DNA from: an archaeon
GTDB lineage: Archaea; Iainarchaeota; Iainarchaeia; Iainarchaeales; CSSED10-239
DNA length: 19,014 nucleotides
Assembly (NCBI GenBank): GCA_035390665.1
Contig: DAOOUC010000012.1
Location: 1-19,014, forward strand
Direction: 5' to 3'
The notes beneath the pieces are model-generated. The model did not search any database and was not told where the DNA came from. It was given only the letters and a program-made list of their open reading frames with translations. How positions within the stretch are numbered: position 1 is the stretch's first letter; each line of letters starts with the position of its first letter. Below, in pieces: positions 1,324 to 17,859 of this stretch. The position numbers were made by a program, and so were the translations under genes.

Positions 1324-2271
1324 ATGACTAGACATCTTTTGACCTTACTAGATTTTAGTAAAGAAGAAATTATGGAGATTCTGGAGTTATCAAAGAAGAT
1401 AAAATCAAATCCAGAGAAATTTTCAGACAAGATAAAAGGAAAAAGTGTATACATGTACTTTGAAAAGAGTTCAACAAGAACTATGGCTTCAATGTATGCA
1501 GGAGTTAATGCCATTGGAGGGCAAGCTTTTGTTCTAACTAACGCTCAGTTTTCTGTTGGAAAGGAATCACTTGCAGATACTGTTAAAACCTTAGAAAGAT
1601 ATACTTGTGCTCTTGCTGGAAGAGTGTATAAACAAGAACTTCTTGAAGAGTGGGCTAAATATTCTAAAGTTCCAGTAATAAATCTTCTTTCTGATAAATA
1701 TCATCCTTGTCAGGCACTAGCAGATTACTTAACAATTTTAGAACACACAGGAGCAATTTACTCAGATGGAAAGATTAATACTGAAAAGATAAAACATACA
1801 AGTGTGGCTTTTATTGGTGATGGAAACAATGTTTGTGCTTCTCTTGCCATATGTGGATTAAAATTAGGATTTACTGTTAGAGTAGCAACTCCAAAAGATT
1901 ATGAACTTGAAAATAATTCAAGAGTAAAAGAGTTTTTAGAAGATTATAAAGATAAAAAATATTTTTCAAGTAATGAACCAAAAGAGACGGTAAAAGAAAC
2001 AGACTTTGTTTACACAGATGTTTGGACATCAATGGGGCAAGAACAAGAAAAGGAAGAAAGATTAAAGTTATTTAGACCATATCAGATTAATGAAGAGTTA
2101 ATTGGTTTAACAAACAATGCTAAGTTCTTACATTGTCTTCCAGCTGAACGTGGAAATGAAGTTACTGCAGGAGTCATTGATGGAAAGAACAGTATTGTTT
2201 TTGATCAAGCAGAAAATAGACTTTGGACAGAAGCCGCAGTAATTTTATATTTAAATAATATTAGGGGGTAA
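1324..2271 (+). CDS. argF: Ornithine carbamoyltransferase (OTCase-type transcarbamylase)
   Basis: Carbamoyl-phosphate motif FEKSSTRTM, HPCQALAD, ornithine-binding DVWTSMG and HCLPAERG. 315 aa is the typical OTCase length. GGGGGT ribosome-binding-like motif upstream of the ATG. Confidence 0.85.
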   Translation: MTRHLLTLLDFSKEEIMEILELSKKIKSNPEKFSDKIKGKSVYMYFEKSSTRTMASMYAGVNAIGGQAFVLTNAQFSVGKESLADTVKTLERYTCALAGRVYKQELLEEWAKYSKVPVINLLSDKYHPCQALADYLTILEHTGAIYSDGKINTEKIKHTSVAFIGDGNNVCASLAICGLKLGFTVRVATPKDYELENNSRVKEFLEDYKDKKYFSSNEPKETVKETDFVYTDVWTSMGQEQEKEERLKLFRPYQINEELIGLTNNAKFLHCLPAERGNEVTAGVIDGKNSIVFDQAENRLWTEAAVILYLNNIRG

Positions 2272-2275
2272 AAAA

Positions 2276-3202
2276 ATGAAAGAAATAAAACACATAATCT
2301 CAATTCATGATCTGGATAGAGAACAAATGGATTATATTTTGTCTTTAGCAAAAGACATAGAAGATAAACCAGAAAAATATAAAAACATCTTAGCAGGAAA
2401 AGTAATTGCAAGTCTTTTCTTTGAACCATCTACAAGAACTAAAATGTCTTTTGAAACAGCAGTTAAAAAGCTTGGAGGAAACACTATTGGTTTTGAAGAT
2501 GTACAAAATACTTCGGCAAAGAAAGGTGAAACTTTTTCTGATTCGATTAAAGTAATTGCTGGTTATTCTGATCTTGTGGTTATGAGAACAAAGATTGAAG
2601 GTGCTTCTCGCCTAGCTAGTGAAATTGCAAACAAACCAATAATCAATGGAGGAGATGGCACAAACCAACACCCCACACAAACACTTCTTGACCTTTATAC
2701 AATTAAGAAAGAAAAAGGAAAGCTTGAAGGATTAACTCTTGGTTTCTTTGGAGATTTAAAATATGGAAGAACAGTTCATTCTTTAGTTGAAGCAATAACT
2801 CTTTATAATCCAAAGAAAATAAAATTTATTGCTGCTCCTCAATTCCAGATAGGAAAGGACTATCTTGAGATGCTTGACAGTAAAGGAATAAAATATGAAG
2901 TATTGGACGATGCTAAAGGTAATCTTAAAGATCTAGATATACTTTATGTTACAAGAACACAACTTGAAAGAATTGTTGAACCAATTGATTTAGAACCATT
3001 AAAGAAGAAATACACCATTTCTAGGACACTTTTGGAATCTGAAGGCAACCCTGATATTTTAGTAATGCATCCACTTCCAAGAGTCTATGAGATAACAACT
3101 GATGTTGATAACACATCACATAATATTTACTTCAAGCAAGCAGACAATGGTGTGCCAATTAGAGAGGCAATAATTTGTATTCTTTTAAAGGTGATAAAAT
3201 GA
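2276..3202 (+). CDS. pyrB: Aspartate carbamoyltransferase catalytic subunit
   Basis: FFEPSTRTKMSFE, HPTQTLLDL, RTQLERI and HPLPRV motifs. 308 aa. Starts 4 bp after argF and is followed by pyrI. Confidence 0.92.
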   Translation: MKEIKHIISIHDLDREQMDYILSLAKDIEDKPEKYKNILAGKVIASLFFEPSTRTKMSFETAVKKLGGNTIGFEDVQNTSAKKGETFSDSIKVIAGYSDLVVMRTKIEGASRLASEIANKPIINGGDGTNQHPTQTLLDLYTIKKEKGKLEGLTLGFFGDLKYGRTVHSLVEAITLYNPKKIKFIAAPQFQIGKDYLEMLDSKGIKYEVLDDAKGNLKDLDILYVTRTQLERIVEPIDLEPLKKKYTISRTLLESEGNPDILVMHPLPRVYEITTDVDNTSHNIYFKQADNGVPIREAIICILLKVIK

Positions 3203-3645
3203 GTGAAAGAAAAGTAGGAACAATAAATAACGGAGTAGTAGTAGATCACATCATCTCAGGAAAAGGAACAGAAATTTCAAAAATTTTAGGGCTTGATTCT
3301 CTTGGAGAGTTTGTGGTAATTGCAAGTAATCTAGAAAGCAAGAAATCAGGAAAAAAAGATCTAATCAAGATAGAAGGAAAAGAACTTAGCCAAGAAGAAC
3401 TAAATAAGATTGCTTTGATTTCTAAAAATTCCACCATCAATATCATAAGAAATGGTGAAGTCTATAAGAAATACAAAGTAGAAATTCCAGAAACTATAGA
3501 AAATATACTTGTATGTAACAATCCATATTGTATAAGCAATCAAGAGAAGATAAAAAGCAAGTTTACAAGTACAACAGAAAAAGACAAAACTACATTAAAA
3601 TGTCATTACTGTGAAAAGAAACAAAATGAAATAAAGATAAAATAA
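3199..3645 (+). CDS. pyrI: Aspartate carbamoyltransferase regulatory subunit
   Basis: The ATG at 3199 overlaps the pyrB TGA (ATGA) and has AGGTGAT upstream. N-terminal VGTINNGVVVDHI allosteric-domain pattern. C-terminal four-Cys zinc domain CNNPYC...CHYCEK. Confidence 0.9.
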   Translation: MSERKVGTINNGVVVDHIISGKGTEISKILGLDSLGEFVVIASNLESKKSGKKDLIKIEGKELSQEELNKIALISKNSTINIIRNGEVYKKYKVEIPETIENILVCNNPYCISNQEKIKSKFTSTTEKDKTTLKCHYCEKKQNEIKIK

Positions 3646-6505: not shown

Positions 6506-6595
6506 ATGAATATTAAAAAAAAAGCCCTCTCACCAATAATTGCAACAATACTTTTAGTTGTTGTTTCTGTCATTCTTGTAACCGTAATTATGTCT
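6506..6595 (+). other. Class III (prepilin/preflagellin-type) signal peptide
   Basis: Basic residues KKK, then a small residue (Ala7), then LSPIIATILLVVVSVILVTVI. This matches the archaeal [KR]-[GA] / L-S-P-[VI]-I-A-T-x-L-L pilin N-terminus. I predict peptidase cleavage between A7 and L8. Confidence 0.7.
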
Positions 6596-7927
6596 TTTGG
6601 ACAAAGTTTTACTGCTCAAGGGTTAGATAAGACAAAAGACATAAAAGAACTATCACAATCAGATGCAGAACACTTTGTTTACCCTAAAACTTTTTCTAGT
6701 GGAGTGATGCAATTTAATTATTCTCCTCCAAACAACAGTTTTGGAGATGTTCAAATAACTAAATACAAGATACTATATGATAATAATGAAACATCTGAAA
6801 TAACCTTAACTAATCCACACACACTAAGCACAGGAACAAATCTTTTAAATCTTGAAGATTTTTCTGATCAAAATATAACCTCTAATAAATTTACAATAAT
6901 TTTAGAAACAGAAGACAATGAATATATTACTTTAAAAAACATAACAAATCCTTTTCCTTATGTTGAACCAGAACCCTATATTCCCCAAGAATATTTTACA
7001 GAAGCATTAAGTCCAGGAACAATGGCAGATGATGCAACGATAGGTACACAGGCCTGGAGTAGTCTGGATTATTCAAAAGCAAGTGATAATAGCTATTCTA
7101 GTGTTAATATGGGGAACGTTGTGAATGGTACATTTTCGGGATATACAACCCATTATCTTAAAGCAAATAATTTTGGTTTTAATATTCCTACTGGCGCAAC
7201 AATAAATGGTATAAAAGTAGAAATTGAGAAATATACCTTTGGGCCATATATTAGTTGGGATTTAAAAATAGTAAAAGCAGATGGATCTATAGGAGATACA
7301 AATATGGGAAGTGGAACTTGGCCAACACCATCAGATCCAAATACCTATGAAACATATGGTTCAGATACAAATGTGTGGGGGGAAACATGGACTGCAGAAA
7401 ATATTAATGATTCTGATTTTGGAGTAGTAATCTCTATTATTGGTCTTTCACAGATGGGGGGATGTTTAAATGAAAATACTTTAATAGCAACGGAATTTGG
7501 GCAGAAAGCAATAACTGATTTAAATATTGGGGATTTAGTTATTTCTTATAATGAAAATACAAAACAATTAGAATTAAAACCAATAATAAATATTTGGTCG
7601 GTTCCAATATCTAATGTAAATAGCAGATATTTTTATATTTATTACAATAATGGGCAATTAATAAAAGCCACAGAAAATCATAAATTCTATATTGATGGAA
7701 ATTATGTGAGAGCAGATGAATTAAATGTTGGGGATAAATTATTATCTAATGATTTTAAAGAATATCCTATAGAAAATATAGAAATTGTAGAAAACACAAC
7801 AGATTATGTTTGGGATATTGAAGTAGAAGATAATCACAATTTCTTTGCTAATAATATTTTAGTTCATAATTTAAACTATTATGCTTATGTAGATCATATT
7901 CGTATGACTGTTTATTATACAAATTAA
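6506..7927 (+). CDS. Secreted archaeal type IV pilin-like protein with an embedded Hint (intein-like) domain
   Basis: N-terminus MNIKKKALSPIIATILLVVVSVILV is a class III signal peptide pattern. The middle is a beta-rich S/T/N/G region with several N-x-S/T sequons. Residues 320-455 form a Hint domain, followed by an 18-aa tail. Confidence 0.8.
   Translation: MNIKKKALSPIIATILLVVVSVILVTVIMSFGQSFTAQGLDKTKDIKELSQSDAEHFVYPKTFSSGVMQFNYSPPNNSFGDVQITKYKILYDNNETSEITLTNPHTLSTGTNLLNLEDFSDQNITSNKFTIILETEDNEYITLKNITNPFPYVEPEPYIPQEYFTEALSPGTMADDATIGTQAWSSLDYSKASDNSYSSVNMGNVVNGTFSGYTTHYLKANNFGFNIPTGATINGIKVEIEKYTFGPYISWDLKIVKADGSIGDTNMGSGTWPTPSDPNTYETYGSDTNVWGETWTAENINDSDFGVVISIIGLSQMGGCLNENTLIATEFGQKAITDLNIGDLVISYNENTKQLELKPIINIWSVPISNVNSRYFYIYYNNGQLIKATENHKFYIDGNYVRADELNVGDKLLSNDFKEYPIENIEIVENTTDYVWDIEVEDNHNFFANNILVHNLNYYAYVDHIRMTVYYTN
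7463..7870 (+). other. Mini-intein-like Hint domain (136 aa, no homing endonuclease insert)
   Basis: Block A is C320-LNENTLIA and block B is ATENH (T-x-x-H). Block F is YVWDIEVEDNHNFFANN and block G is ILVHN455. The next residue is Leu rather than Cys/Ser/Thr. Confidence 0.8.
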
Positions 7928-7930
7928 TTT

Positions 7931-10771
7931 TTATTTCTTTTCTAATAACTTTTTTAAAAACTCACCAGTATAACTTTTCTTTACCTTTGTGATTTCTTCA
8001 GGTGTTCCTTTGGCAATTATTTCTCCACCTTTTTCTCCACCTTCTGGTCCAAGGTCAATGATATAGTCTGCTGACTTTATGACATCAAGGTTGTGTTCAA
8101 TAACAACAACTGTGTTTCCTTTTTCTACAAGTCTGTTTAAAACATCAATAAGTTTTTTAACATCATGGAAATGAAGACCTGTTGTTGGCTCATCGAGAAG
8201 ATAGATGGTGTTACCTGTATCTCTTTTGGAAAGTTCTTTTGTTAATTTGATTCTTTGAGCTTCTCCACCCGAAAGAGTAACTGAACTTTGCCCAAGCTTA
8301 ATGTAACCAAGACCAACATCTACCAAGGTCTGTAACTTTCTTTTAATATTTGGATGATTTTCAAAGAAAAGATAAGCTTCATCAACAGACATGTTTAAGA
8401 CATCAGCAATGTTTTTTTTCTTGTATAAGATTTCAAGAGTCTCTGCATTATATCTTTTTCCTTTACATTCTTCACAGTCAACATAGATATCAGGCAAAAA
8501 ATTCATTTCAATCTTAATCTGTCCATCACCTTGACAGGCTTCACATCTTCCACCTTTAACATTAAAAGAAAATCTTCCAATATCATATCCTCTAAGTTTT
8601 GCATCATTAGTCATTGCAAACATTGTTCTGATATCATCAAATAACTTAGTGTATGTTGAGGGGTTTGATCGAGGAGTTCTTCCAATTGGCGATTGATCAA
8701 TAGAAATTACTTTGTCAATAGATTTTGGAACAATTATTTCTTTTACTTTACCAATATCCATTTTTGATTCATAAAATTTAGTCATCAAGTATGGATAGAG
8801 TGTTTCATAAACTAGAGAAGACTTCCCTGAACCAGAAACACCAGTAACACAAGTAAAAACTCCTGTTGGAATCTCTAAATTAATATTTTTAAGATTATTT
8901 TCTTGTGCTCCAAGAATTTTAACAAAATCTTTAGGTTGTCTTCTAATCTTTGGTGTGTGAATAAATTCTGTTCCTGCAAGATATTGACCTGTTAAAGACT
9001 TTTTATTTTTTTCAATTTCTGTAGGAGTGCCACAAGCAACAACTTCTCCACCATAGATTCCGGCCCCTGGGCCCATGTCAATAACATAGTCTGCTTGTCT
9101 TATGGTATCTTCATCATGTTCAACGACAACAACAGAATTACCAAGATCTCTTAATTTACAAAGAGTATCAATTAATTTTTGATTATCTCTTTGATGTAAA
9201 CCAATAGATGGTTCATCAAGAACATACAAGACCCCGGTTAAATTTGTTCCTAAATTTGTGGCTAACCGAATTCTTTGTGCTTCTCCTCCTGAAAGAGAGC
9301 CAGAAGCTCTTGAAAGTGTTAAATAACCAAGACCAACTTTTTCTAAAAACTCTAAACGAGAATTAATTTCTTTAAGAACATGTGCTGAAATTTCTTTTTG
9401 TTTATCATCAAGTTTTATTTTTTTAAAAAATTCACGGGCATTGGAGATTGAAAAATCAGATATGTCAATAATAGATTTATCACCAATCTTTACAGCTAAA
9501 ATTTTCCTTTTAAGCCTTTTACCAAGACAAGCAGGACAAGGAGAAGTTTTCATATACTTTTCCATATCTTGTCTTCTATAATCAGATTCTGTTTGTTTGT
9601 AAAGACGTTGAGATTGAGGAATTAATCCTTCCCAAGTACCTGTGTAATTAAAAGATGAAGTTCCATTTTTTCCTTCAAGATTAAAGGCAATATTGTCTTT
9701 TGAGCCATACATAATAATATTATATTGTTCTTTTGTTAAATCTTGAATTGGAGTCAAAGCTGAAAAACCATAATGTTTTGCTATTGTTGCTAGATGTTGT
9801 CCACGCCAACCATCCACTGCATTTCTATAAATCATTATTGCTCCGTCAGCAATTGACTTAGTTTTATCTGGAATTATTAAATCAGGATCAAAATCCATCT
9901 TAAAACCTAAACCAGAACACTCTTCACAAGCACCAAAAGGAGAATTAAAAGAAAACATTCTAGGCTGTAGTTCTTCAAAGGAAAGACCACAAACAGGACA
10001 AGACATCTTAGAAGAAAAAAGTTTTTCTTTTGCTTTGTCTTTGTTTTTTTCAAAATCTTTAACAGTTATTACTCTTAATAATCCATCTGATTTGTTTAGG
10101 CCTTGCTCTATGTCTTGATAAAGTCTTGTTCTGTCGTCACTTGGTATTATTCTATCAATAACAATATCAATATCATGCATTCTATATCTATCAATCTTTA
10201 TTTCTTCATCTGTCCTTGCAATTTCTCCGTTTATTCTTACTCTTAAGAAACCTTCTTTGTTTAGATCTGAGAATAATTTTTCATAAGTACCTTTTTTCTT
10301 TTGAACAATTGGAGAAAGAATGAAAATTTCGTCAGAGTATTCCTTTAAAATATTCTCTGTTATCTTTTGAGCAGATAAAGGTTGTATAGGGATATTGTGA
10401 TCAGGACAATAAGGAATTCCAATTCTTGCATAAAGCAAACGAAGATAATCATAAATCTCAGTAACTGTACCAACAGTTGAGCGAGGGTTCTTAGAAGTAC
10501 TCTTTTGTTCTATTGCAATTGCTGGAGACAACCCTTCTATAGAATCCACATCAGGTTTTTTCATAACCCCTAAGAACTGTCTAGCATAGGCAGATAAAGA
10601 CTCCATATATCTTCTTTGTCCGTCAGCATAGATGGTATCAAAAGCTAAAGTTGACTTTCCAGAACCTGATAGTCCAGTAATCACTACAAGCTGATCTCTA
10701 GGTATCTCTACATCAATGTTTTTTAGATTGTGCTCTCTGGCACCCTTTATTATAATACTTTTATAAGCCAT
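7931..10771 (-). CDS. uvrA: Excinuclease ABC subunit A
   Basis: 946 aa. Two Walker A sites (GLSGSGKST and GVSGSGKSS), two ABC signatures (LSGGEAQR twice) and zinc modules (CPVCG...CEECSGLG and CEACQGDG...CEECKGKRY). The N-terminal IKGAREHNLKNI is also typical of UvrA. Confidence 0.97.
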   Translation of the reverse strand: MAYKSIIIKGAREHNLKNIDVEIPRDQLVVITGLSGSGKSTLAFDTIYADGQRRYMESLSAYARQFLGVMKKPDVDSIEGLSPAIAIEQKSTSKNPRSTVGTVTEIYDYLRLLYARIGIPYCPDHNIPIQPLSAQKITENILKEYSDEIFILSPIVQKKKGTYEKLFSDLNKEGFLRVRINGEIARTDEEIKIDRYRMHDIDIVIDRIIPSDDRTRLYQDIEQGLNKSDGLLRVITVKDFEKNKDKAKEKLFSSKMSCPVCGLSFEELQPRMFSFNSPFGACEECSGLGFKMDFDPDLIIPDKTKSIADGAIMIYRNAVDGWRGQHLATIAKHYGFSALTPIQDLTKEQYNIIMYGSKDNIAFNLEGKNGTSSFNYTGTWEGLIPQSQRLYKQTESDYRRQDMEKYMKTSPCPACLGKRLKRKILAVKIGDKSIIDISDFSISNAREFFKKIKLDDKQKEISAHVLKEINSRLEFLEKVGLGYLTLSRASGSLSGGEAQRIRLATNLGTNLTGVLYVLDEPSIGLHQRDNQKLIDTLCKLRDLGNSVVVVEHDEDTIRQADYVIDMGPGAGIYGGEVVACGTPTEIEKNKKSLTGQYLAGTEFIHTPKIRRQPKDFVKILGAQENNLKNINLEIPTGVFTCVTGVSGSGKSSLVYETLYPYLMTKFYESKMDIGKVKEIIVPKSIDKVISIDQSPIGRTPRSNPSTYTKLFDDIRTMFAMTNDAKLRGYDIGRFSFNVKGGRCEACQGDGQIKIEMNFLPDIYVDCEECKGKRYNAETLEILYKKKNIADVLNMSVDEAYLFFENHPNIKRKLQTLVDVGLGYIKLGQSSVTLSGGEAQRIKLTKELSKRDTGNTIYLLDEPTTGLHFHDVKKLIDVLNRLVEKGNTVVVIEHNLDVIKSADYIIDLGPEGGEKGGEIIAKGTPEEITKVKKSYTGEFLKKLLEKK

Positions 10772-11148: not shown

Positions 11149-11973
11149 TTATTTACCTATTAATTTTTTATCTTCAGAGTTAATTTTTCTTTCAAGTTTT
11201 TTGATATCTTCTGCTGGTGGCAAATTTTCTGGCTTAATTCCGCTTTTACCAAGAACTTCTCTAACATCTTTGTTATTTTTCACGTGTTCGTATGTGATTT
11301 TAGGTTCTCCGTGAAGATCTTCTTTTTTAACATTAAAGTTTGTTATTTCAGTTGCTAGGTCTTTAGCTTTAATTGTAATTGTGGGTAAAAACTCAGCTAA
11401 TGGTCTGTTAGCTGGAACATTAAGCTTTTGTTTCATATCTTGAGTATTGTAACCACCAAATAAAGCCCAATCGCCTTTGCTTCTTATTCTTGCAAAGCCA
11501 TCTCTATCAACTCCTCTTTCATATATTAGTTTAGATAATTCAGTTTCTGTTTCTGTAAGTTTATTCCTTGCAACTATTCTTTCAATCAATTCTAATCTTT
11601 GTTCAACAAGTTCTTGTTTTCTAGTTTGTAATGCAAAATAGCTTTGAGCAAAAGCAATTACTTCCTTTCTTGGATCTCCGTTTTGAGCAATTAAGTAACA
11701 AGCATATCTTGTAAGTAAAATATCATCAATTCCTCTAGTTCCCCCTTTCCCTAAACCTATCATTTTGTTGACGTCAACAAAATGATCCGATATGCTTTGT
11801 TTAGCGTTTTTACAGGACTCTTTTGCTTTATCAATTACTTGATTAAAGTTTCTCCATTCGTTATAATCCAGAAGTTTTTGTAAATCTCTTGCATACCAAT
11901 ATTCCACCTCTTTCTCTTTATGAACATAGTCTTCAAAAGACTTTTGTAGTTTTCCAATAATTAGTTTATCCAT
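11149..11973 (-). CDS. dinD: DNA-damage-inducible protein D homologue (DinD family)
   Basis: [32 protein letters not shown]...SDHF...[36 protein letters not shown] closely matches the conserved DinD core as I remember it from E. coli DinD. The 274-aa length is also similar. GGTGAT lies upstream of the ATG. Confidence 0.8.
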
Positions 11974-12202: not shown

Positions 12203-13003
12203 ATGGTTGAATTAAAATTTAAAATTGATAAAGAAGACGATATTAATATCTGGTTAAAATTTCTAAATAATTCAAATAAAGCAAATAGTTTTGGTAGAGA
12301 TAGACTATCTAATCTTCCTAAGGATTTTCTAGATAAAGTTATAGATAAACCAGAATCTGAACAAAGAGAAATAATTTCTAATTATATAGAGCAATACTAT
12401 ACAGAAAAACACTTAATCAAATTTAAAGTAGAATCTTTTAATAAAGTTAAAGAAAATCTAGACAAGATAATAGAAAGGCTTGAGAAGCTACATAACAGAA
12501 AACTACCAGTAAATAAAATTATAGTAAAGTATGAAACCTTTACTTGTTGTCCCTATATGTGGAGAGGGAAAGAATCAGATTGGTTTGGTTTATATTTTGC
12601 AACATATGTTTTAGATCAAGATAGTCAGATTCTAGTTTTTTGTCATGAAGTAATGCATCTTTTTTTCCATTATTATTACTTTGATTATTGTTTAGAGAAA
12701 GGATTAAATGAAAAACAAACAATGGATCTAAAAGAAGCAGTAACAGTTCTTCTCAACTATGAATTAACAGACATTATAGACAAGAAGGATTATGGTCATC
12801 CAAGTCATAAGCAACTTAGAATTCAACTTGTAGAAATCTGGAACTCTATGGAAGAAAAAGATTTTCAATTGCTTTTAGATAAAGCAATAGATAATATGAA
12901 AGGAAAAGATAATTCTAATCAAGATAAAGATTCGCCATCAAGAAAACCAGAGAAAATAATTAAATGTTTACCAACAAAAGAAGAACTAAAGAGATTAATT
13001 TAG
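12203..13003 (+). CDS. Hypothetical protein with an HExxH zinc-metallopeptidase-like motif
   Basis: ILVFCHEVMHLFFH contains HEVMH at 12644-12658, with Glu candidates 14-27 residues downstream (LEKG, LKEAV). I recognised no other family signature. The C-terminal tail is low-complexity and K/D/S-rich. Confidence 0.55.
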   Translation: MVELKFKIDKEDDINIWLKFLNNSNKANSFGRDRLSNLPKDFLDKVIDKPESEQREIISNYIEQYYTEKHLIKFKVESFNKVKENLDKIIERLEKLHNRKLPVNKIIVKYETFTCCPYMWRGKESDWFGLYFATYVLDQDSQILVFCHEVMHLFFHYYYFDYCLEKGLNEKQTMDLKEAVTVLLNYELTDIIDKKDYGHPSHKQLRIQLVEIWNSMEEKDFQLLLDKAIDNMKGKDNSNQDKDSPSRKPEKIIKCLPTKEELKRLI

Positions 13004-13500
13004 TTTTTTTTCTTTAATTCTTTTGCAAGTTTCTCAATCTTTTTCAAGTCTGCCTGTGGTCCATCGTTTGACATTAGGTAGCCAGGATAACTCTTGAAGA
13101 AATCTTCTCTTCCACTTGGGCATTGCTTCCATTTACCTTTTCCTTTAAGGTAAGGGGTATCGTGCATTGGAATTAACTTGATATGTGCATGATTAATACC
13201 TGTTCCTTCCATAATTAATCCCACACGACCAACATTAGGATAATGTTTAAGAAGAATCTTAGATACTTTCTTACTTCTAAGAATAAACTTTTCTAAAAAC
13301 TTATCAGGTAAACTAAGAACATCACTACTATAATGTTTCTTAGGAATAACTACAGTAAATCCTTCAGTGTTTGGATAGATGGAAAGAAAAGCCATAAACT
13401 CCTTATCCTCCCAGAAAATTCCAGGAGTGTGAAAGTTACCTTTAGCTATTTCACAAAAAACACATTTCCCTTTTTCAGTTGTTGATTTATAGTTTGCCAT
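13000..13500 (-). CDS. HIT (histidine triad) family protein with a variant H-x-H-x-K motif
   Basis: The start is reset to MANYK (ATG at 13498-13500). CVFCEIAKG...FMAFLSIYPNTEGFTVVIPKKHY is a typical HIT N-terminal half. The triad region is GINHAHIKLIP (13177-13191). Confidence 0.8.
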   Translation of the reverse strand: MANYKSTTEKGKCVFCEIAKGNFHTPGIFWEDKEFMAFLSIYPNTEGFTVVIPKKHYSSDVLSLPDKFLEKFILRSKKVSKILLKHYPNVGRVGLIMEGTGINHAHIKLIPMHDTPYLKGKGKWKQCPSGREDFFKSYPGYLMSNDGPQADLKKIEKLAKELKKKN

Positions 13501-13513
13501 ATTTTTTTCACAT

Positions 13514-14275
13514 TTATTTTTTCCTACAAACATAAATTGTCCAAAGAGGATATTTAGAATGATGCGCATACTTTTCAGGATATCTATTCTTAAAACTTTT
13601 AATTGGATAACAATCAACAAGATCTATTAATTCAAGATGGTTTTTAATCAATGCTCTTAAATGAATATGAATTGGATACCAGTAACATTTAATATTCATT
13701 CCAGGAAGCCATTCAACATTTTCTAATCTCCCATTTTGACCAAGAAATATTGTTTTATTTCTTTTTTTATCAATAAATTTACCTACCCCTCTTATCTTAT
13801 AATTATTATCCTCATAGTCTTCTCTAACACAAGCAACAGGACTATTGTAAGAATAATAAAGTATTCCGCCTTTCTTTAAGATTCTATTTATTTCTTTATA
13901 TGCAAGATTTAGATCCGCAATATAATCAAGAATAAGAGAACAAGTAACAACATCAAAGGAATTAGATTTATATGGAAGCTTAGTAACTGTTCCTACTTTA
14001 AACTCTACTTTTGGATTATTCTTCTTAGCCATTTCTATCATAGTTTCGCTAATGTCTATACCTGAACATTTTGCACCTTTCTTAGAATAAGCTTTAATAT
14101 GTATGCCAGCACCACAACCAATATCAAGAAGATTTTTTCCTTTTATATTTTTAACAGCCTTTAACATATTTGGGATTTCAACATACTCGTTGTAATATCT
14201 TTTCTTTTGATATTCTTCTCCAAAGTTATTATACATTTTTTTAGTATTTTCTTCTAAATTAATTTTTTTAACCAT
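13514..14275 (-). CDS. Class I SAM-dependent methyltransferase (Methyltransf_11-like)
   Basis: LLDIGCGAGIHIKAYSKKGAKCSGIDISETMIEMAKKN, then FDVVTCSLILDYI and LKKGGILYYS. Confidence 0.85.
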   Translation of the reverse strand: MVKKINLEENTKKMYNNFGEEYQKKRYYNEYVEIPNMLKAVKNIKGKNLLDIGCGAGIHIKAYSKKGAKCSGIDISETMIEMAKKNNPKVEFKVGTVTKLPYKSNSFDVVTCSLILDYIADLNLAYKEINRILKKGGILYYSYNSPVACVREDYEDNNYKIRGVGKFIDKKRNKTIFLGQNGRLENVEWLPGMNIKCYWYPIHIHLRALIKNHLELIDLVDCYPIKSFKNRYPEKYAHHSKYPLWTIYVCRKK

Positions 14276-14348
14276 AAATAATAATTACATAGATAGATTT
14301 TAAATATTGTGTATCTAATATTATATATAACTGAAAGGATTAAATTTT

Positions 14349-15629
14349 ATGACAATTGAATCTTGTGCAGATGTTATTTCTCTTTATAATGGTAAACTTG
14401 TTCTTGTCAATAGACTGAAAATTCCAAAAGGACTAGCAATTCCTGGTGGAAGACTTGAAGTGAATGAAAGCTTAGAGGATTGTGCTCTAAGAGAGTTTAG
14501 AGAAGAAACAGGTCTTAATCTTAAAATACATAAACAACTAGGAACTTATTCTAATCCAAGCAGAGACCCAAGAGGGCAAAAGGTTTCTACTACTTTTATT
14601 GGAGAAGCTTTTGGAAAGATTAAGAATGAAAAAGATAAGACTAAAGTAATATTACTTAAACTAGAAGAAATTGAAAAAAACAAAAAGTTTTTTGTTTTTG
14701 ATCATTATCAGATTATTCAGGATTTTCTTAAATCAGAAGGAATTGTTTTACTAAAGGAAGATAAAAAAGCAAAAACAATATTTAGTTTTTCAATAAATAA
14801 TAATTTCTTTGGAAAAGTAGTTAGTGATAAGAAATTAAACTTTGGTAATAAAGAAAGACTACTATTAGATGCATATGTTCCAGGTATTAAAATAATTTCA
14901 AATATTAAGAACTATGATTTGATAATAAAACACAAAGAATCTAATACTCAAAAACTAATTGTAAATCCAGGAAATATTGAAATCTATGGAGATTGGAAAG
15001 GAAAGATTTCTTTAGATCTATATCATTTAATCTATGGTGTTTCTAGAAAACATTACTTGGAAAATAATCTTTATTCTGTGCATTCTGCTTGTGCAGGTAT
15101 TAATAAAAATCTAAAATTAATTGTGGGCCACACAGGTTGTGGTAAAACCACAGTTCTACTTGAATTAATAAAGAAAAAATATAAGATGGTTTCTGGAAAT
15201 AAAACAATTGTGAGTATAGATAACGATAAGATGTGTGCAATCTCAGGAACAAAAACAATAACCACACTAATAAGCACAAATTTAAATAATGCAATAAAAT
15301 ATGCAGATAGAACTGCATTTCAATTAAAGAAAAATCAATATCTTAATTCTGGAGAAGTAAAATCCATATTTGTTATTAATATTAACAATTATAATCACAT
15401 AGAAAAATTATCAAAGCCTAGTGCTTTATACAGAATATATCCTTATTTTTTAGATACTGTTAATGCAGACACTATCTATGGTGAAACTCTAATAGATGGA
15501 ACAGTAACTAATAAAATAAAAGAAACATTAGTTAAGAAATTAAAAAAAGCATTAACAAAAATTAATGTTTACTTGATATCAGGATCAATAGAATATATAA
15601 CTAATAAGATTATAGAGTTGAAAAAATGA
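14349..15629 (+). CDS. Fusion protein: N-terminal NUDIX hydrolase domain plus C-terminal HprK-like P-loop domain
   Basis: A perfect Nudix box, GRLEVNESLEDCALREFREETGL (residues 34-56, nt 14448-14516), fits GX5EX7REUXEEXGU. The Walker A GHTGCGKTT is at nt 15126-15152. Its context, VHSACAGINKNLKLIVGHTGCGKTTVLLELIKKKYKMVSGN, aligns without gaps to the HPr kinase/phosphorylase P-loop region as I recall it. Confidence 0.75.
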   Translation: MTIESCADVISLYNGKLVLVNRLKIPKGLAIPGGRLEVNESLEDCALREFREETGLNLKIHKQLGTYSNPSRDPRGQKVSTTFIGEAFGKIKNEKDKTKVILLKLEEIEKNKKFFVFDHYQIIQDFLKSEGIVLLKEDKKAKTIFSFSINNNFFGKVVSDKKLNFGNKERLLLDAYVPGIKIISNIKNYDLIIKHKESNTQKLIVNPGNIEIYGDWKGKISLDLYHLIYGVSRKHYLENNLYSVHSACAGINKNLKLIVGHTGCGKTTVLLELIKKKYKMVSGNKTIVSIDNDKMCAISGTKTITTLISTNLNNAIKYADRTAFQLKKNQYLNSGEVKSIFVININNYNHIEKLSKPSALYRIYPYFLDTVNADTIYGETLIDGTVTNKIKETLVKKLKKALTKINVYLISGSIEYITNKIIELKK

Positions 15630-16717
15630 ATATATTATATGGAATTAGTGGAATAGGAACTGGTCATTCAAACAGACAACTACCGATAATTGAACATTTT
15701 TCTAAAGATTCTAGGATTGCAATCTTTTGTTATGGTGAAAGTTACAGAATATATAGTGAGCTTTCTACTAAAAATAAAAATATTATACCCATTTTAGTAG
15801 ACATCCCGTTTATAGCAGAAAGTTCCAATGGATTTGATTGGAAAGAAACTGTAAGAATAAACAAAGGAAAAGACTTTAATACAATAAATAGTTTAGCAAT
15901 TTTAAAAGTAGAAGAAACAATTGGAATACCAGATGTTGTTATTTCTGATTATGAACCATTAAGTGCACAATATTCTTATGCATATGATGTGCCCTTAATC
16001 ACAATTGATCAGCAAAGTAAATATCTTTGTGGCAATTATCCTTCGTTAAATGGTAAAACCGTAATTTCAGAGGTTATGCGTCTTAGAATGTTCTTACCAA
16101 AGGCTAATGCAAGAATTGCTTGTTCTTTTTTTAATGTAGATACTTCTATAAATAAACATAATGTGACTATTTTACCACCAACCATTAAAGATGAAATATT
16201 AAATCTAAAGAAAAAAGAAGAAAATGTAATATTACTATATATTTCTTCCCAAAGCGAGTTTGTTCAAAATCTTGAAGAAGTAATAGATGTTTTTAAATTA
16301 TATAAAAAAGAAAAATTTGAAATATTTGTAAAAGATATACCAATTATTAATTTACCAGAAAATGTTTCAATTCATAAGCACGGAGACAACAATCATTTTT
16401 ATGAAACTTTAAGTAAATCTAAAGCAATTATTTCAACTGCTGGGCACACCTTATTATCAGAAGCAATGTATTTAGGAATTCCAGTATATGCTGTGCCATT
16501 ATCTGTCTATGAACAACACATGAATGCAAATGTTTTAGAGAAAAATGGATTTGGGATATCTAGAAAAAAGATAGAAAAAGAAAGTTTAGATTATTTCTTA
16601 CAGAACCTTTTAAGATTTAAAACAAATATAATGACTGATAAAGAAATATTACTAAGGAGATCTGGAAAAGAAGAAATAATTAAATTAATAGAACAAATTG
16701 CAAGAGGGGAAAAATGA
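15626..16717 (+). CDS. GT-B glycosyltransferase (MJ1255/TIGR00661-like, MurG-type C-terminal domain)
   Basis: N-terminal ILYGISGIGTGHSNRQ (G-x-G-x-G-H-x-x-R). C-terminal ISTAGHTLLSEAMYLGIPVYAVPL...EQHMNANVLEKNGFG is a donor-binding pattern. Its ATG overlaps the upstream TGA (ATGA). Confidence 0.75.
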   Translation: MNILYGISGIGTGHSNRQLPIIEHFSKDSRIAIFCYGESYRIYSELSTKNKNIIPILVDIPFIAESSNGFDWKETVRINKGKDFNTINSLAILKVEETIGIPDVVISDYEPLSAQYSYAYDVPLITIDQQSKYLCGNYPSLNGKTVISEVMRLRMFLPKANARIACSFFNVDTSINKHNVTILPPTIKDEILNLKKKEENVILLYISSQSEFVQNLEEVIDVFKLYKKEKFEIFVKDIPIINLPENVSIHKHGDNNHFYETLSKSKAIISTAGHTLLSEAMYLGIPVYAVPLSVYEQHMNANVLEKNGFGISRKKIEKESLDYFLQNLLRFKTNIMTDKEILLRRSGKEEIIKLIEQIARGEK

Positions 16718-17859
16718 AGATACTTGTATTTTCCCCGCCATTTCTTGGACACCTTAACATTCTTAGAAAAATGATAGAAAATAACAGAGATATAGAATTT
16801 AAACTAGTTATTACTGGTTGGAAAAATATTATAATTGATGGCGAACTTAATCTAAATAAATCAACGCTTACAGAAACAGATCCGGCATTATGGACTTTTA
16901 AAAGAACTTATGAGCTTTTAGATGATTGTCTAGAAGTTACAAAAACATATAATCCTGATTTAATAATTTATGATTTTTTTTGTTTAGAAGCATATTTTGT
17001 TGGAAGATTATTAAATATTCCAGCTTGGGCGTCTATTCCATCAATGCTTGGACCAAATGATAAAGATGATTATCTTAAAGAAAAAATAAAATTGCCAGAA
17101 AATCAAGAATATTTAAAAAAATTAGAAGAAAAATATAAGATAAAAATAGAAGATATAGAAATGATCTCAGATGGTTTGTATTTTCCAGAAAAAAACAACA
17201 TAGTTTGGTCATATCCAGAAATTATTACAAAAGACTTTATGACTGGAAGAAAAGAAAATAAATTTTATTTTGTTGGAAACTATAATACTTATAGAAAACA
17301 AGAAAAAGAAATTATTTATTTTTCCTTTGGTACAGTTGTAATGAATAATTTATGGAACCAACAAGAAGAAACAAGAGAATTACTTAAAGAATTTATTCAA
17401 GAAGTTTCAAAAAAATTAAAAGAAGAAAAAGTAATCTTTGTTACTCAAGGAAAACCAATATTAGAAAACTATCCAAGCAACTGGGAGATAAAAGAAAATG
17501 TAGACCAAGTGGAGTTTCTTTCAAGATCAAAATTATTTATAACCCACGGAGGAAACAATAGCTTTCATGAATCTTTTTTACAAAAAGTGCCAATGATTGT
17601 TATCCCTTTCTTTGGAGACCAGATACTTACTGGGCAAAGAGTTGAAAAATTAGGAATTGGAATAAATCTAGGAATAGATACTTCAATAGACACAAAGAAA
17701 TCAAAAGTATTTCTAAATAAAGAACTAGCAAACAGATTAACACAAGCAGTAAAAGAAATACTAAATAATCCCAAATATCAAAACAAGCTTGATAATTTTA
17801 AATTAACCAATGATAATTTGAATGAGTTAATTAAGAAACAGTTTTCTTCTGTTTTTTAA
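16714..17859 (+). CDS. UDP-glycosyltransferase (GT1, MGT/UGT-like)
   Basis: N-terminal ILVFSPPFLGHLN. FITHGGNNSFHESFLQKVPMIVIPFFGDQ fits the UDPGT signature as I recall it (H-[STAGC]-G-x2-[STAG]-x3-[STAGL]-[LIVMFA]-x4-P-[LIVMTA]-x3-P-x3-D-Q). ATGA overlap with the upstream gene. Confidence 0.85.
   Translation: MKILVFSPPFLGHLNILRKMIENNRDIEFKLVITGWKNIIIDGELNLNKSTLTETDPALWTFKRTYELLDDCLEVTKTYNPDLIIYDFFCLEAYFVGRLLNIPAWASIPSMLGPNDKDDYLKEKIKLPENQEYLKKLEEKYKIKIEDIEMISDGLYFPEKNNIVWSYPEIITKDFMTGRKENKFYFVGNYNTYRKQEKEIIYFSFGTVVMNNLWNQQEETRELLKEFIQEVSKKLKEEKVIFVTQGKPILENYPSNWEIKENVDQVEFLSRSKLFITHGGNNSFHESFLQKVPMIVIPFFGDQILTGQRVEKLGIGINLGIDTSIDTKKSKVFLNKELANRLTQAVKEILNNPKYQNKLDNFKLTNDNLNELIKKQFSSVF

Follow-up and report, generated by a model that had tools for sequence, protein, structure and literature searches.

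The 19,014-nucleotide stretch of archaeal contig DAOOUC010000012.1 analysed here (the window) encodes a protein in which an N-terminal Nudix hydrolase domain is joined to a C-terminal P-loop domain of the PEPCK/HprK fold. The fusion gene is the first gene of a three-gene operon, and both genes behind it encode glycosyltransferases (GTs). Comparison of this operon with related loci reveals a conserved, undescribed three-enzyme module consisting of a GT1-type UDP-glycosyltransferase (UGT), a PEPCK/HprK-fold P-loop protein, and an MJ1255-family GT. The domain and context assignments are made with high confidence. The fold and the enzyme classes are familiar; the family, the make-up of its active site, its partnership with GTs, and its fusion to a Nudix domain are undescribed, and full-text literature searches found no description of the family, the cassette, or the Nudix-P-loop fusion. 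The P-loop family is best regarded as the mark of an undescribed sugar-and-phosphate pathway, not as half of a stand-alone bifunctional enzyme.

Forty-one non-redundant loci were collected by exact-protein look-ups and by a scan of one genome per species, in which YPYFLDTVNAD served as the search pattern, and were annotated by seed-based phmmer and jackhmmer searches. At all 41 loci, the gene for an MJ1255-type GT lies directly downstream of the P-loop gene (in L021 it is joined to the other GT). A second GT is present at 38 loci; the three loci without it lie at the end of a contig or close to it, with clear truncation in two. This second GT takes one of two forms that never occur together: an unannotated protein of about 366 residues, called CGA-like for reasons given below (26 loci), or a GT resembling YjiC and macrolide glycosyltransferases (MGT; 12 loci). 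In the first arrangement (type A), the CGA-like gene precedes the P-loop gene and is itself preceded, at 21 of the 26 loci, by a gene for a PhyH-family 2-oxoglutarate dioxygenase. In the second (type B), which includes the window, the YjiC/MGT-like gene is either upstream and divergent or else downstream. The three window genes are translationally coupled through ATGA overlaps, the first between the fusion gene stop and the start of the MJ1255-type GT gene, the second between that gene and the UDP-glycosyltransferase gene. Clustering of neighbouring open reading frames (ORFs) of at least 70 aa, the output of which contained antisense shadow ORFs, yielded no further conserved partner beyond the PhyH protein, the GTs, and the hydrolases described below. 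No PADLOC or PHROGs model matched the P-loop domain or the GT partners (only generic Nudix matches were returned), and a defence-system or phage origin was dropped.

The CGA-like protein has no Pfam match, and every one of its 330 family members that carries a name from its source is called “hypothetical protein”. It weakly matches the model for cytosylglucuronate (CGA) synthase, TIGR04467 (E=9.8e-9, 34.8 bits against a cut-off of 300). Its AlphaFold2 model (pLDDT 94) has a GT-B fold whose top matches in the PDB are Bacillus subtilis YjiC and UGT109A1, which are also the best sequence matches of the second GT in the window. Orthology between the window GT and the CGA-like protein was considered and rejected (BLASTP E=0.06); since both are GT1/YjiC-like and mutually exclusive, the two are treated here as probable analogues.

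Gene fusions repeat the pattern of the operons. Seven proteins join the P-loop domain to the MJ1255-type GT, three join the CGA-like protein to the P-loop domain (including P0010 of Planktothrix), four of about 1,070-1,100 aa combine all three in the order CGA-like, P-loop, MJ1255-type GT, and one has the order P-loop, MJ1255-type GT, CGA-like. Natural fusion proteins of 650-1,140 aa, built from a divergent GT-B protein, the P-loop domain, and the MJ1255-type GT, include P0010 (L001 8001-10052), P0119, P0150, P0152, P0177, and P0191. Another composite protein, P0185 (255 aa), begins with half of a P-loop family protein (as far as SGNKT...GT) and passes directly into the C-terminal half of an NTPase_I-T protein; a deletion pseudogene or a chimera created in assembly from two adjacent genes is the probable explanation.

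The first-pass annotation of the window, made from its letters alone, had proposed coupled hydrolysis and phosphorylation of a nucleoside-diphosphate-X (NDP-X) compound. On that model, a self-contained Nudix-P-loop enzyme would hydrolyse NDP-X (e.g., ADP-ribose) and phosphorylate or sense one of the products, with the GTs as incidental neighbours. Both domains are indeed fused and conserved, the best family-level matches of the Nudix domain are NadM-type ADP-ribose pyrophosphatase domains and NrtR, and an NrtR-like gene lies near the cassette of a woesearchaeote, L013 (6728-7330, minus strand; divergent upstream and one gene from the cassette), where it matches the ADP-ribose-responsive repressor model at E=3.7e-33 and has a degenerate Nudix box. 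The model is nevertheless improbable. A survey of domain architectures, which the same annotation had recommended, found 163 of 185 inspected family members to be single-domain proteins with neither a Nudix nor any other fused domain. GT adjacency holds at 41 of 41 loci, against a Nudix at eight; an unrelated NTPase_I-T occupies the Nudix position in the L045 operon; and the P-loop fusions that do not involve Nudix are all to GTs, save the likely chimera P0185. GT linkage and GT fusions dominate, which the proposal of coupled chemistry overlooks, and the Nudix domain is dispensable.

Nucleotide hydrolases nevertheless recur at the cassettes. The eight loci with a Nudix comprise three in which it is fused, four in which it is the last operon gene (L013 and three from Melainabacteria), and one in which it is adjacent (L016). 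NTPase_I-T genes (PF01931, the inosine/xanthosine triphosphatase family) adjoin the cassette at eight of the 41 loci, singly or two in tandem. At L045, the locus of the closest stand-alone homologue, the gene order NTPase_I-T, P-loop, MJ1255-type GT, UGT is that of the window, and the NTPase_I-T gene ends 2 nt before the P-loop start, at the place where the window has its Nudix fused. About 40% of the cassettes thus carry a nucleotide phosphohydrolase from either of two unrelated folds. The Nudix is taken as an exchangeable accessory that stands outside the core chemistry of the P-loop protein. In the manner of a Rosetta stone, the Nudix fusion hints that the pathway includes nucleotide hydrolysis, and the recurrence of NTPase_I-T suggests that this “house-cleaning” family has an unreported role in a dedicated pathway. 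NTPase_I-T genes lie directly upstream of the cassette in L045 (6486-10100), L047 (5203-8979), L046 (2392-6710), L010 (103-5911), and L012 (2296-6680). In Melainabacteria (L028 10061-12706; also L037 and L040), the cassette is followed by genes for a GFO/IDH/MocA oxidoreductase, an unannotated 338-aa protein, and the terminal Nudix; these extension genes share one strand, and the gaps measure about 10-40 bp. L005 has a gene for a LOG-family nucleotide N-glycosidase and L010 a nucleoside-deoxyribosyltransferase-like gene, one occurrence each.

The Nudix-P-loop fusion itself is real but taxonomically narrow. Among 5.8 billion proteins searched, this architecture occurs in only four clusters, P0001 to P0004 (426-430 aa; 77-100% identity), which come from separate NCBI, JGI, ENA, and Logan assemblies; P0001 is identical to the 426-aa window protein and bears the label “archaeon” in public databases, and all carriers belong to one archaeal clade. 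Identity to the window protein across the fusion clusters is 80-93% in the Nudix domain and 77-81% in the P-loop domain. The linker, which is variable and includes an indel, is 92% identical in the closest cluster (P0002) but drops to 33-42% in P0003 and P0004; P0004 has four more residues than the window protein. The stand-alone homologue P0029 aligns with the window protein from residue 143 to the end (46% identity over 284 aa). The possibility had been raised early on that the fusion is an assembly or frameshift artefact joining neighbouring genes, with homologues split in two, and a more distant homologue locus, L013, does have separate Nudix and P-loop genes. The probability of such an artefact is close to nil: the reading frame is continuous, the same architecture recurs in four clusters from separate assemblies, and both domains are conserved while the linker varies. 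Moreover, the L013 operon has the order P-loop, MJ1255-type GT, UGT, Nudix (its terminal Nudix, of 133 aa, is 43% identical to the window Nudix domain, and its gene shares 4 nt with the one before it); with the Nudix at the opposite end of the operon, simple read-through could not yield the window fusion. The suggestion that a pyrophosphatase joined to a kinase-like nucleoside triphosphate (NTP)-binding module is an undescribed architecture was borne out, and the fusion is rare.

The family to which the P-loop domain belongs has no name, and its proteins are about 290 aa long. Among 1.84 billion proteins, a six-sequence profile finds 823 representative clusters (at 50% identity) at E<1e-3 and 196 at E<1e-30. 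Against this profile, in which it is itself included, the window protein reaches 404.8 bits (E=2e-116); it contains all of the family signature motifs: AYxPG, VH(S/A)xC, GH(S/T)GxGK(T/S), SGNKT, and YPYF(L/M)DxVNA(D/N). A few members bear the precomputed Pfam label PF27840, which may be a recent placeholder entry for the family.

The C-terminal domain had been likened at first reading to HPr kinase/phosphorylase (HprK/P), and a scan of Pfam and TIGRFAM models had been advised. In that scan the HprK-type models stayed below their thresholds. The window protein matches Hpr_kinase_C (PF07475) at E=0.0027 (17.7 bits against a cut-off of 33.3), TIGR00679 at 16.5 bits against 240, and the HprK-related kinase B model TIGR04355 at 19.2 bits against 200 (E=5e-4, P-loop region only). 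Generic AAA models score as well as Hpr_kinase_C (AAA_14 at 0.0023), phmmer of the window segment against the PDB ranks HprK (E=0.06) after ABC and midasin P-loops, and the family profile returns generic P-loop matches from PDB sequences, midasin first, a result judged uninformative. By itself, the HprK likeness of the window sequence is weak and not separable from a generic P-loop match. The resemblance is solid because relatives of the window protein show it: P0039 and P0023 match Hpr_kinase_C at 4e-6 and 2e-5, although the best relatives reach only 26.9 bits, and the core segment of P0039 has Lactobacillus casei HprK/P (1jb1) as its top PDB match (E=1.4e-4), in an alignment that pairs His with His, P-loop with P-loop, and “mvSGNk” with “liADDr”.

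The predicted structure places the domain more precisely. With 47 sequences as input, AlphaFold2 modelled aa 141-426 at a pLDDT of 95.8 and a pTM of 0.92. In a Foldseek search of the PDB, ATP-dependent PEPCKs occupy ranks 1-35 (E 1e-9 to 1.6e-7, probability 1.0, TMq 0.51-0.60, about 345 columns); HprK/P (E 1e-6 to 1e-5, TMq 0.28-0.36) is also matched, as are GTP-PEPCKs, which rank below the ATP-PEPCKs. An unrelated P-loop family (such as AAA or a shikimate/gluconate-kinase type) had been another early concern; no fold other than PEPCK/HprK is present among the 50 PDB matches listed. The sole significant match in BFVD is a giant-virus PEPCK. The window P-loop domain has no Pfam PEPCK match. By hhalign, residues 75-143 of the domain align with residues 201-274 of E. 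coli Pck (E=2e-4, probability 45-62%), and the low-confidence alignment outside that segment of Pck is taken as a hint only. The P-loop domain is thus a compact member of the PEPCK/HprK superfamily, HprK-like in local sequence and nearer to a (shortened) ATP-PEPCK in overall fold. It forms a family separate from the HprK/P, PEPCK, and HprK-related kinase A/B families; it is not counted as an HprK family member because it falls below every HprK cut-off and its fold is nearer PEPCK. The initial comparison with HprK stands at the level of the superfamily and fails at that of the family.

Conservation within the domain is concentrated around a rebuilt active site. In 47 aligned sequences that are 27-46% identical to the window P-loop domain, ten columns are invariant (H244, H261, G265, K266, K285, T286, G300, T301, D369, and G412), which argues for a conserved active site. 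The central segment VHSAC...GHTGCGKTT...MVSGNKT spans aa 244-286. Upstream of it, the W, D, and H of DWKGKISLDLYH are invariant in the six-sequence alignment (A1); the 47-sequence alignment (A2) lists the H alone, and that one as nearly invariant. The hhalign comparison pairs the W...D...H of the family with W206...E210...K213 of Pck, and VH(S/A)AC with M-H232-C-S; a low-confidence alignment sets YPYFLDTVNAD over “YHFLSGFTAK” of PEPCK. Lys213, His232, and Asp268/Asp269 (E. coli numbering) are metal-binding or catalytic residues of PEPCK. The P-loop family keeps the His232 equivalent, has His at the position of Lys213, and has Gly-Asn at the position of the Asp pair (as placed by the HprK alignment). 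The first-pass annotation had noticed that the acidic pair of LVADD is replaced by MVSGN in the window protein. The P0039-1jb1 alignment, with S-G-N over A-D-D, agrees, and the pair is missing from the whole family and not just from the window protein, SGNKT being invariant or nearly so in the 47 members. The invariant Asp of YPYFLD (D369) is a candidate replacement for the missing acidic residue.

These substitutions bear on whether the P-loop domain is a kinase at all. It could instead be a phosphorylase dependent on inorganic phosphate or pyrophosphate (PPi), akin to the reverse reaction of HprK/P, or a non-catalytic module that binds a nucleotide or nucleotide sugar and bridges or regulates the GTs. 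With the metal-binding and general-base acidic pair of HprK/P and PEPCK changed to Gly-Asn, followed by an invariant Lys, and with His in place of Lys213 of PEPCK, the site looks cationic and poor in metal ligands; the physical position of the domain between two GTs in the triple fusions would also suit a scaffold. Yet the Gly and Lys of Walker A are invariant and followed by Thr or Ser, ten invariant residues among such divergent sequences exceed the usual need of a scaffold, and the invariant Asp of YPYFLD could provide the missing acid. A non-kinase function is therefore unlikely, though it keeps appreciable weight.

The reading put forward here, tentatively and at rather less than even confidence, is that the P-loop protein is a kinase in a glycoside pathway, in which glycosylation, phosphoryl transfer, and a further glycosylation take place on a small, probably nucleotide-derived molecule. 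The first GT would add a sugar to a small acceptor, probably one derived from a nucleobase or nucleotide. The P-loop domain would then move a phosphoryl group from an NTP, or possibly from PPi (as HprK/P can use), onto the glycoside, employing a rebuilt catalytic centre with His for PEPCK Lys213, the His232 equivalent kept, Asn-Lys for Asp-Asp, and the new invariant Asp of YPYFLD. The MJ1255-family enzyme would attach a second sugar. The Nudix would be an accessory nucleotide pyrophosphohydrolase that prepares the precursor (NDP-X or NTP to nucleoside monophosphate or ribose-phosphate) or, alternatively, clears a nucleoside-diphosphate by-product or an off-pathway nucleotide; NTPase_I-T proteins would take this role in the sister operons, and in the archaeal clade the Nudix-P-loop fusion would fix a 1:1 stoichiometry. 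This scheme is the most economical one, because the first GTs, in both variants, resemble promiscuous soluble small-molecule UGTs, because the window operon contains no carrier or precursor gene, and because gene order and fusion proteins alike place the P-loop domain between the GTs. The nucleotide hydrolases and the faint CGA-synthase likeness point to a nucleobase- or nucleotide-derived acceptor; the hydrolases are also compatible with removal of the nucleoside-diphosphate by-products that all three enzymes would make.

Several observations weigh against the glycoside-kinase pathway. The family does not have the acidic pair with which HprK/P and PEPCK bind metal and carry out catalysis, which makes phosphoryl transfer itself a putative activity. 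The reaction order is guessed from gene and domain order alone. The TIGR04467 match may mirror only a general GT1 similarity. Finally, 25 of the 41 cassettes have no adjacent nucleotide hydrolase, so that the data do not demand a substrate of nucleotide origin.

The phosphoryl acceptor could also be a protein. As a Ser/Thr kinase of proteins or peptides, like HprK/P or the HprK-like lasso-peptide kinases, the P-loop domain would share its target with the GTs; HprK/P is the nearest relative in local sequence near the P-loop, TIGR04355 is weakly matched, and the PhyH-type dioxygenase of type A cassettes could hydroxylate a protein. Such a role is quite improbable, given that no conserved small ORF or target gene was found among the neighbouring ORFs of at least 70 aa, that the intergenic gaps of the window operon are too short to leave room for a precursor-peptide gene, that both first-GT variants resemble small-molecule UGTs, that the catalytic Asp pair of HprK/P is missing, and that the overall fold is nearer PEPCK. 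A more specific version, a pathway for peptides made by ribosomes and modified after translation (RiPPs) with a lasso-peptide kinase, was rejected for lack of a precursor ORF or of the corresponding machinery.

The Nudix domain is, by its sequence, an intact member of the Nudix superfamily. Pfam NUDIX (PF00293) covers aa 7-125 (E=9e-16, 58.5 bits against a gathering score of 21.1), and the Nudix box, G34-x5-E-x7-R-E-F-x-E-E-x-G-L56, fits the consensus GX5EX7REUXEEXGU at every position, just as the early description of a textbook box within the first 130 or so residues had it. Its closest solved structure is the stand-alone Nudix protein 2yyh of Aquifex aeolicus (E=1.9e-29, about 55% identity as counted from the alignment), with weaker structural-database matches to the Nudix half of NadM-Nudix (2qjo) and to an uncharacterised MutT/nudix protein (2fml). 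The best NCBIfam matches are models for NadM-Nudix ADP-ribose pyrophosphatases (E=3.5e-11) and for the ADP-ribose-responsive repressor NrtR; the NF003786-type NadM-Nudix score is 42.9 bits against a cut-off of 397, which a Nudix domain alone cannot reach, as these models also span the adenylyltransferase half. The SNPSRDPRG segment had been said to recall Nudix enzymes acting on ADP-ribose or nucleotide sugars. The core of the motif recurs in 2yyh and 2fml; the specificity is suggested by family-level similarity only.

In the one-genome-per-species scan, the P-loop family occurs in bacteria of the candidate phyla radiation (CPR; Saccharibacteria, Uhrbacteria, Collierbacteria, Peregrinibacteria, Paceibacterota, and Moraniibacteriota), DPANN archaea, Melainabacteria/Obscuribacterales, Micavibrio-like alphaproteobacteria, one Planktothrix, and one Methanosarcinales genome. 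Its loci (L012-L044) are nearly confined to lineages with reduced genomes or with episymbiotic or predatory habits. The window MJ1255-type GT is 47% identical to its counterpart in a Saccharibacteria cassette (L003), a value higher than the 37% between the P-loop domains of the two loci (P0048) and consistent with movement of the module between CPR and DPANN as a unit; the GT identity points to inter-domain transfer.

To our knowledge, the PEPCK/HprK fold has so far been associated mainly with two chemistries, the formation of phosphoenolpyruvate and the phosphorylation and phosphorolysis of HPr. With the P-loop family the fold would gain a third branch of considerable size, in which the canonical acidic pair has been lost and the site is strictly conserved. 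The link of the family to two GTs, which in some lineages extends to fusion into single proteins about 1,100 aa long, defines a concrete three-enzyme pathway that can be tested. A fuller proposal, more doubtful than the glycoside pathway as such, is that the family is a new PEPCK/HprK-fold class of small-molecule glycoside kinase or phosphorylase working at a rebuilt active site without the Asp pair, which together with the two GTs would make a hitherto unknown phosphorylated, diglycosylated, possibly nucleobase-derived metabolite, while the Nudix or NTPase_I-T would feed or police the nucleotide precursor. If so, this metabolite would typify microbes that live as episymbionts or predators and have reduced genomes (CPR, DPANN, Melainabacteria/Obscuribacterales, and Micavibrio). 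Very few specialised pathways have, as far as we know, been characterised in CPR, DPANN, Melainabacteria, or predatory alphaproteobacteria, and the product could bear on symbiont-host interaction or on nucleotide salvage.

Table 1. Features of the fusion gene and its operon, in window coordinates.
Feature	Position	Strand	Residues	Basis or remark
Intergenic region, 73 bp, AT-rich; presumed promoter	14276..14348	+		Upstream of the operon, divergent methyltransferase gene on the other side
Whole fusion gene	14349..15629	+	426 aa plus stop	ATG to TGA; ORF list and translation
Nudix hydrolase domain	14349..14738	+	1-130	Pfam NUDIX
Nudix box GRLEVNESLEDCALREFREETGL	14448..14516	+	34-56	Read from sequence; every consensus catalytic position present
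SNPSRDPRG motif	14550..14576	+	68-76	Core P-x-R-D-P-R also in 2yyh, 2fml, and both L013 Nudix proteins
Inter-domain linker (12 residues)	14739..14774	+	131-142	Start of P0029 alignment; drop in identity at linker
PEPCK/HprK-fold P-loop domain	14775..15626	+	143-426	Profile search, AlphaFold2 model, Foldseek
DWKGKISLDLYH	14991..15026	+	215-226	Aligns with E. coli PEPCK segment W206...K213 (hhalign)
VHSAC	15078..15092	+	244-248	Invariant His over PEPCK His232 and the conserved HprK His before the P-loop
Walker A / P-loop GHTGCGKTT	15126..15152	+	260-268	H, G, K invariant
SGNKT	15192..15206	+	282-286	Site of HprK 'ADD' / PEPCK 'GDDEH'; K, T invariant, S, G, N nearly so
YPYFLDTVNAD	15438..15470	+	364-374	Family signature with invariant Asp
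MJ1255/VC2487-family GT (Pfam Glyco_trans_1_3)	15626..16717	+		Pfam E=1.5e-44; TIGR00661 E=4.5e-36
GT1-family UDP-glycosyltransferase, macrolide-GT / B. subtilis YjiC-like	16714..17859	+		Pfam UDPGT, EryCIII-like_C; TIGR01426 E=1.2e-30; PDB YjiC E=3e-22

The remainder of the window, which has a G+C content of about 29%, holds several other genes. Divergent upstream of the operon, at 13000-14275 on the minus strand, are genes for a HIT-family nucleotide hydrolase/transferase and a class I S-adenosylmethionine-dependent methyltransferase; the 206-aa HIT ORF shares about 100 nt with the methyltransferase ORF, so that the HIT gene probably starts further in. In relatives, too, the fusion gene has such neighbours: a weak HIT fragment in L007 and a similar methyltransferase in L008. 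A 473-aa protein (6506-7927, plus strand) begins with an archaeal type IV pilin signal and carries a pretoxin-HINT/intein-like domain (PT-HINT E=4.5e-17) at its C-terminus; it may be a secreted, self-cleaving surface or toxin protein. Next to uvrA (7931..10771) lies a gene for a BRO-N domain protein (11149-11973, minus strand; E=3.3e-11), a domain typical of antirepressor-like proteins of phages and viruses. At the contig end (17948-19013, minus strand), a DUF6036/DUF2204 nucleotidyltransferase gene and an upstream same-strand HVO_2833_C-like gene (weak, E=0.0036) resemble a two-gene pair of the nucleotidyltransferase toxin-antitoxin type. Three tandem genes at 1324-3645 (plus strand), of which the translations were read only, include two carbamoyltransferase-like genes (ornithine- and aspartate-type by their motifs) and a third taken as the aspartate carbamoyltransferase regulatory chain; this set would be unusual biosynthetic content if the host is a DPANN archaeon.

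Four known systems offer a comparison with the window protein and its cassette. With HprK/P (PF07475), the P-loop family shares the fold superfamily, a conserved His about 16 residues before the P-loop, and the succession of G-x-S/T-G-x-G-K-S/T, a helix, and a beta-strand with the catalytic motif. In contrast to HprK/P, the family has SGN(K) in place of ADD, the window protein gave no detectable match to the HprK N-terminal domain, about 100 extra PEPCK-like N-terminal residues are present, structural overlap is low (TMq about 0.3), and the genomic partners are GTs instead of HPr or genes of the phosphotransferase system. For most of the length of the domain, the best structural match is to PckA (E about 1e-9, TMq 0.54-0.60), and W206...K213, H232, and G248-T255 of E. 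coli Pck align with W...H, H, and GHxGxGKT of the family; the window domain differs from PckA in being about half the size, in a sequence identity of only about 8-13%, and in its changed metal ligands (K213 to His, D269 to Asn). The Nudix domain has the canonical box and the downstream P-x-R-D-P-R of the NadM-Nudix/NrtR/2yyh clade, but is joined to a P-loop domain, unlike NadM-Nudix and NrtR with their NMN adenylyltransferase or winged-helix domains.

The early steps of blasticidin S and mildiomycin biosynthesis are carried out by a CMP hydrolase (BlsM/MilB) and then a cytosylglucuronate synthase (BlsD/MilC). Type A cassettes recall these pathways in having a GT that weakly matches CGA synthase and, occasionally, LOG-like or deoxyribosyltransferase-like N-glycosidases and nucleotide phosphohydrolases. 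The TIGR04467 match is, however, far under the family cut-off, and the window cassette (type B) has a YjiC-like GT instead. We know of no PEPCK/HprK-fold protein and no MJ1255-type GT in the blasticidin S and mildiomycin pathways, and those pathways belong to actinomycetes, whereas the cassettes described here are hosted by CPR, DPANN, and Melainabacteria.

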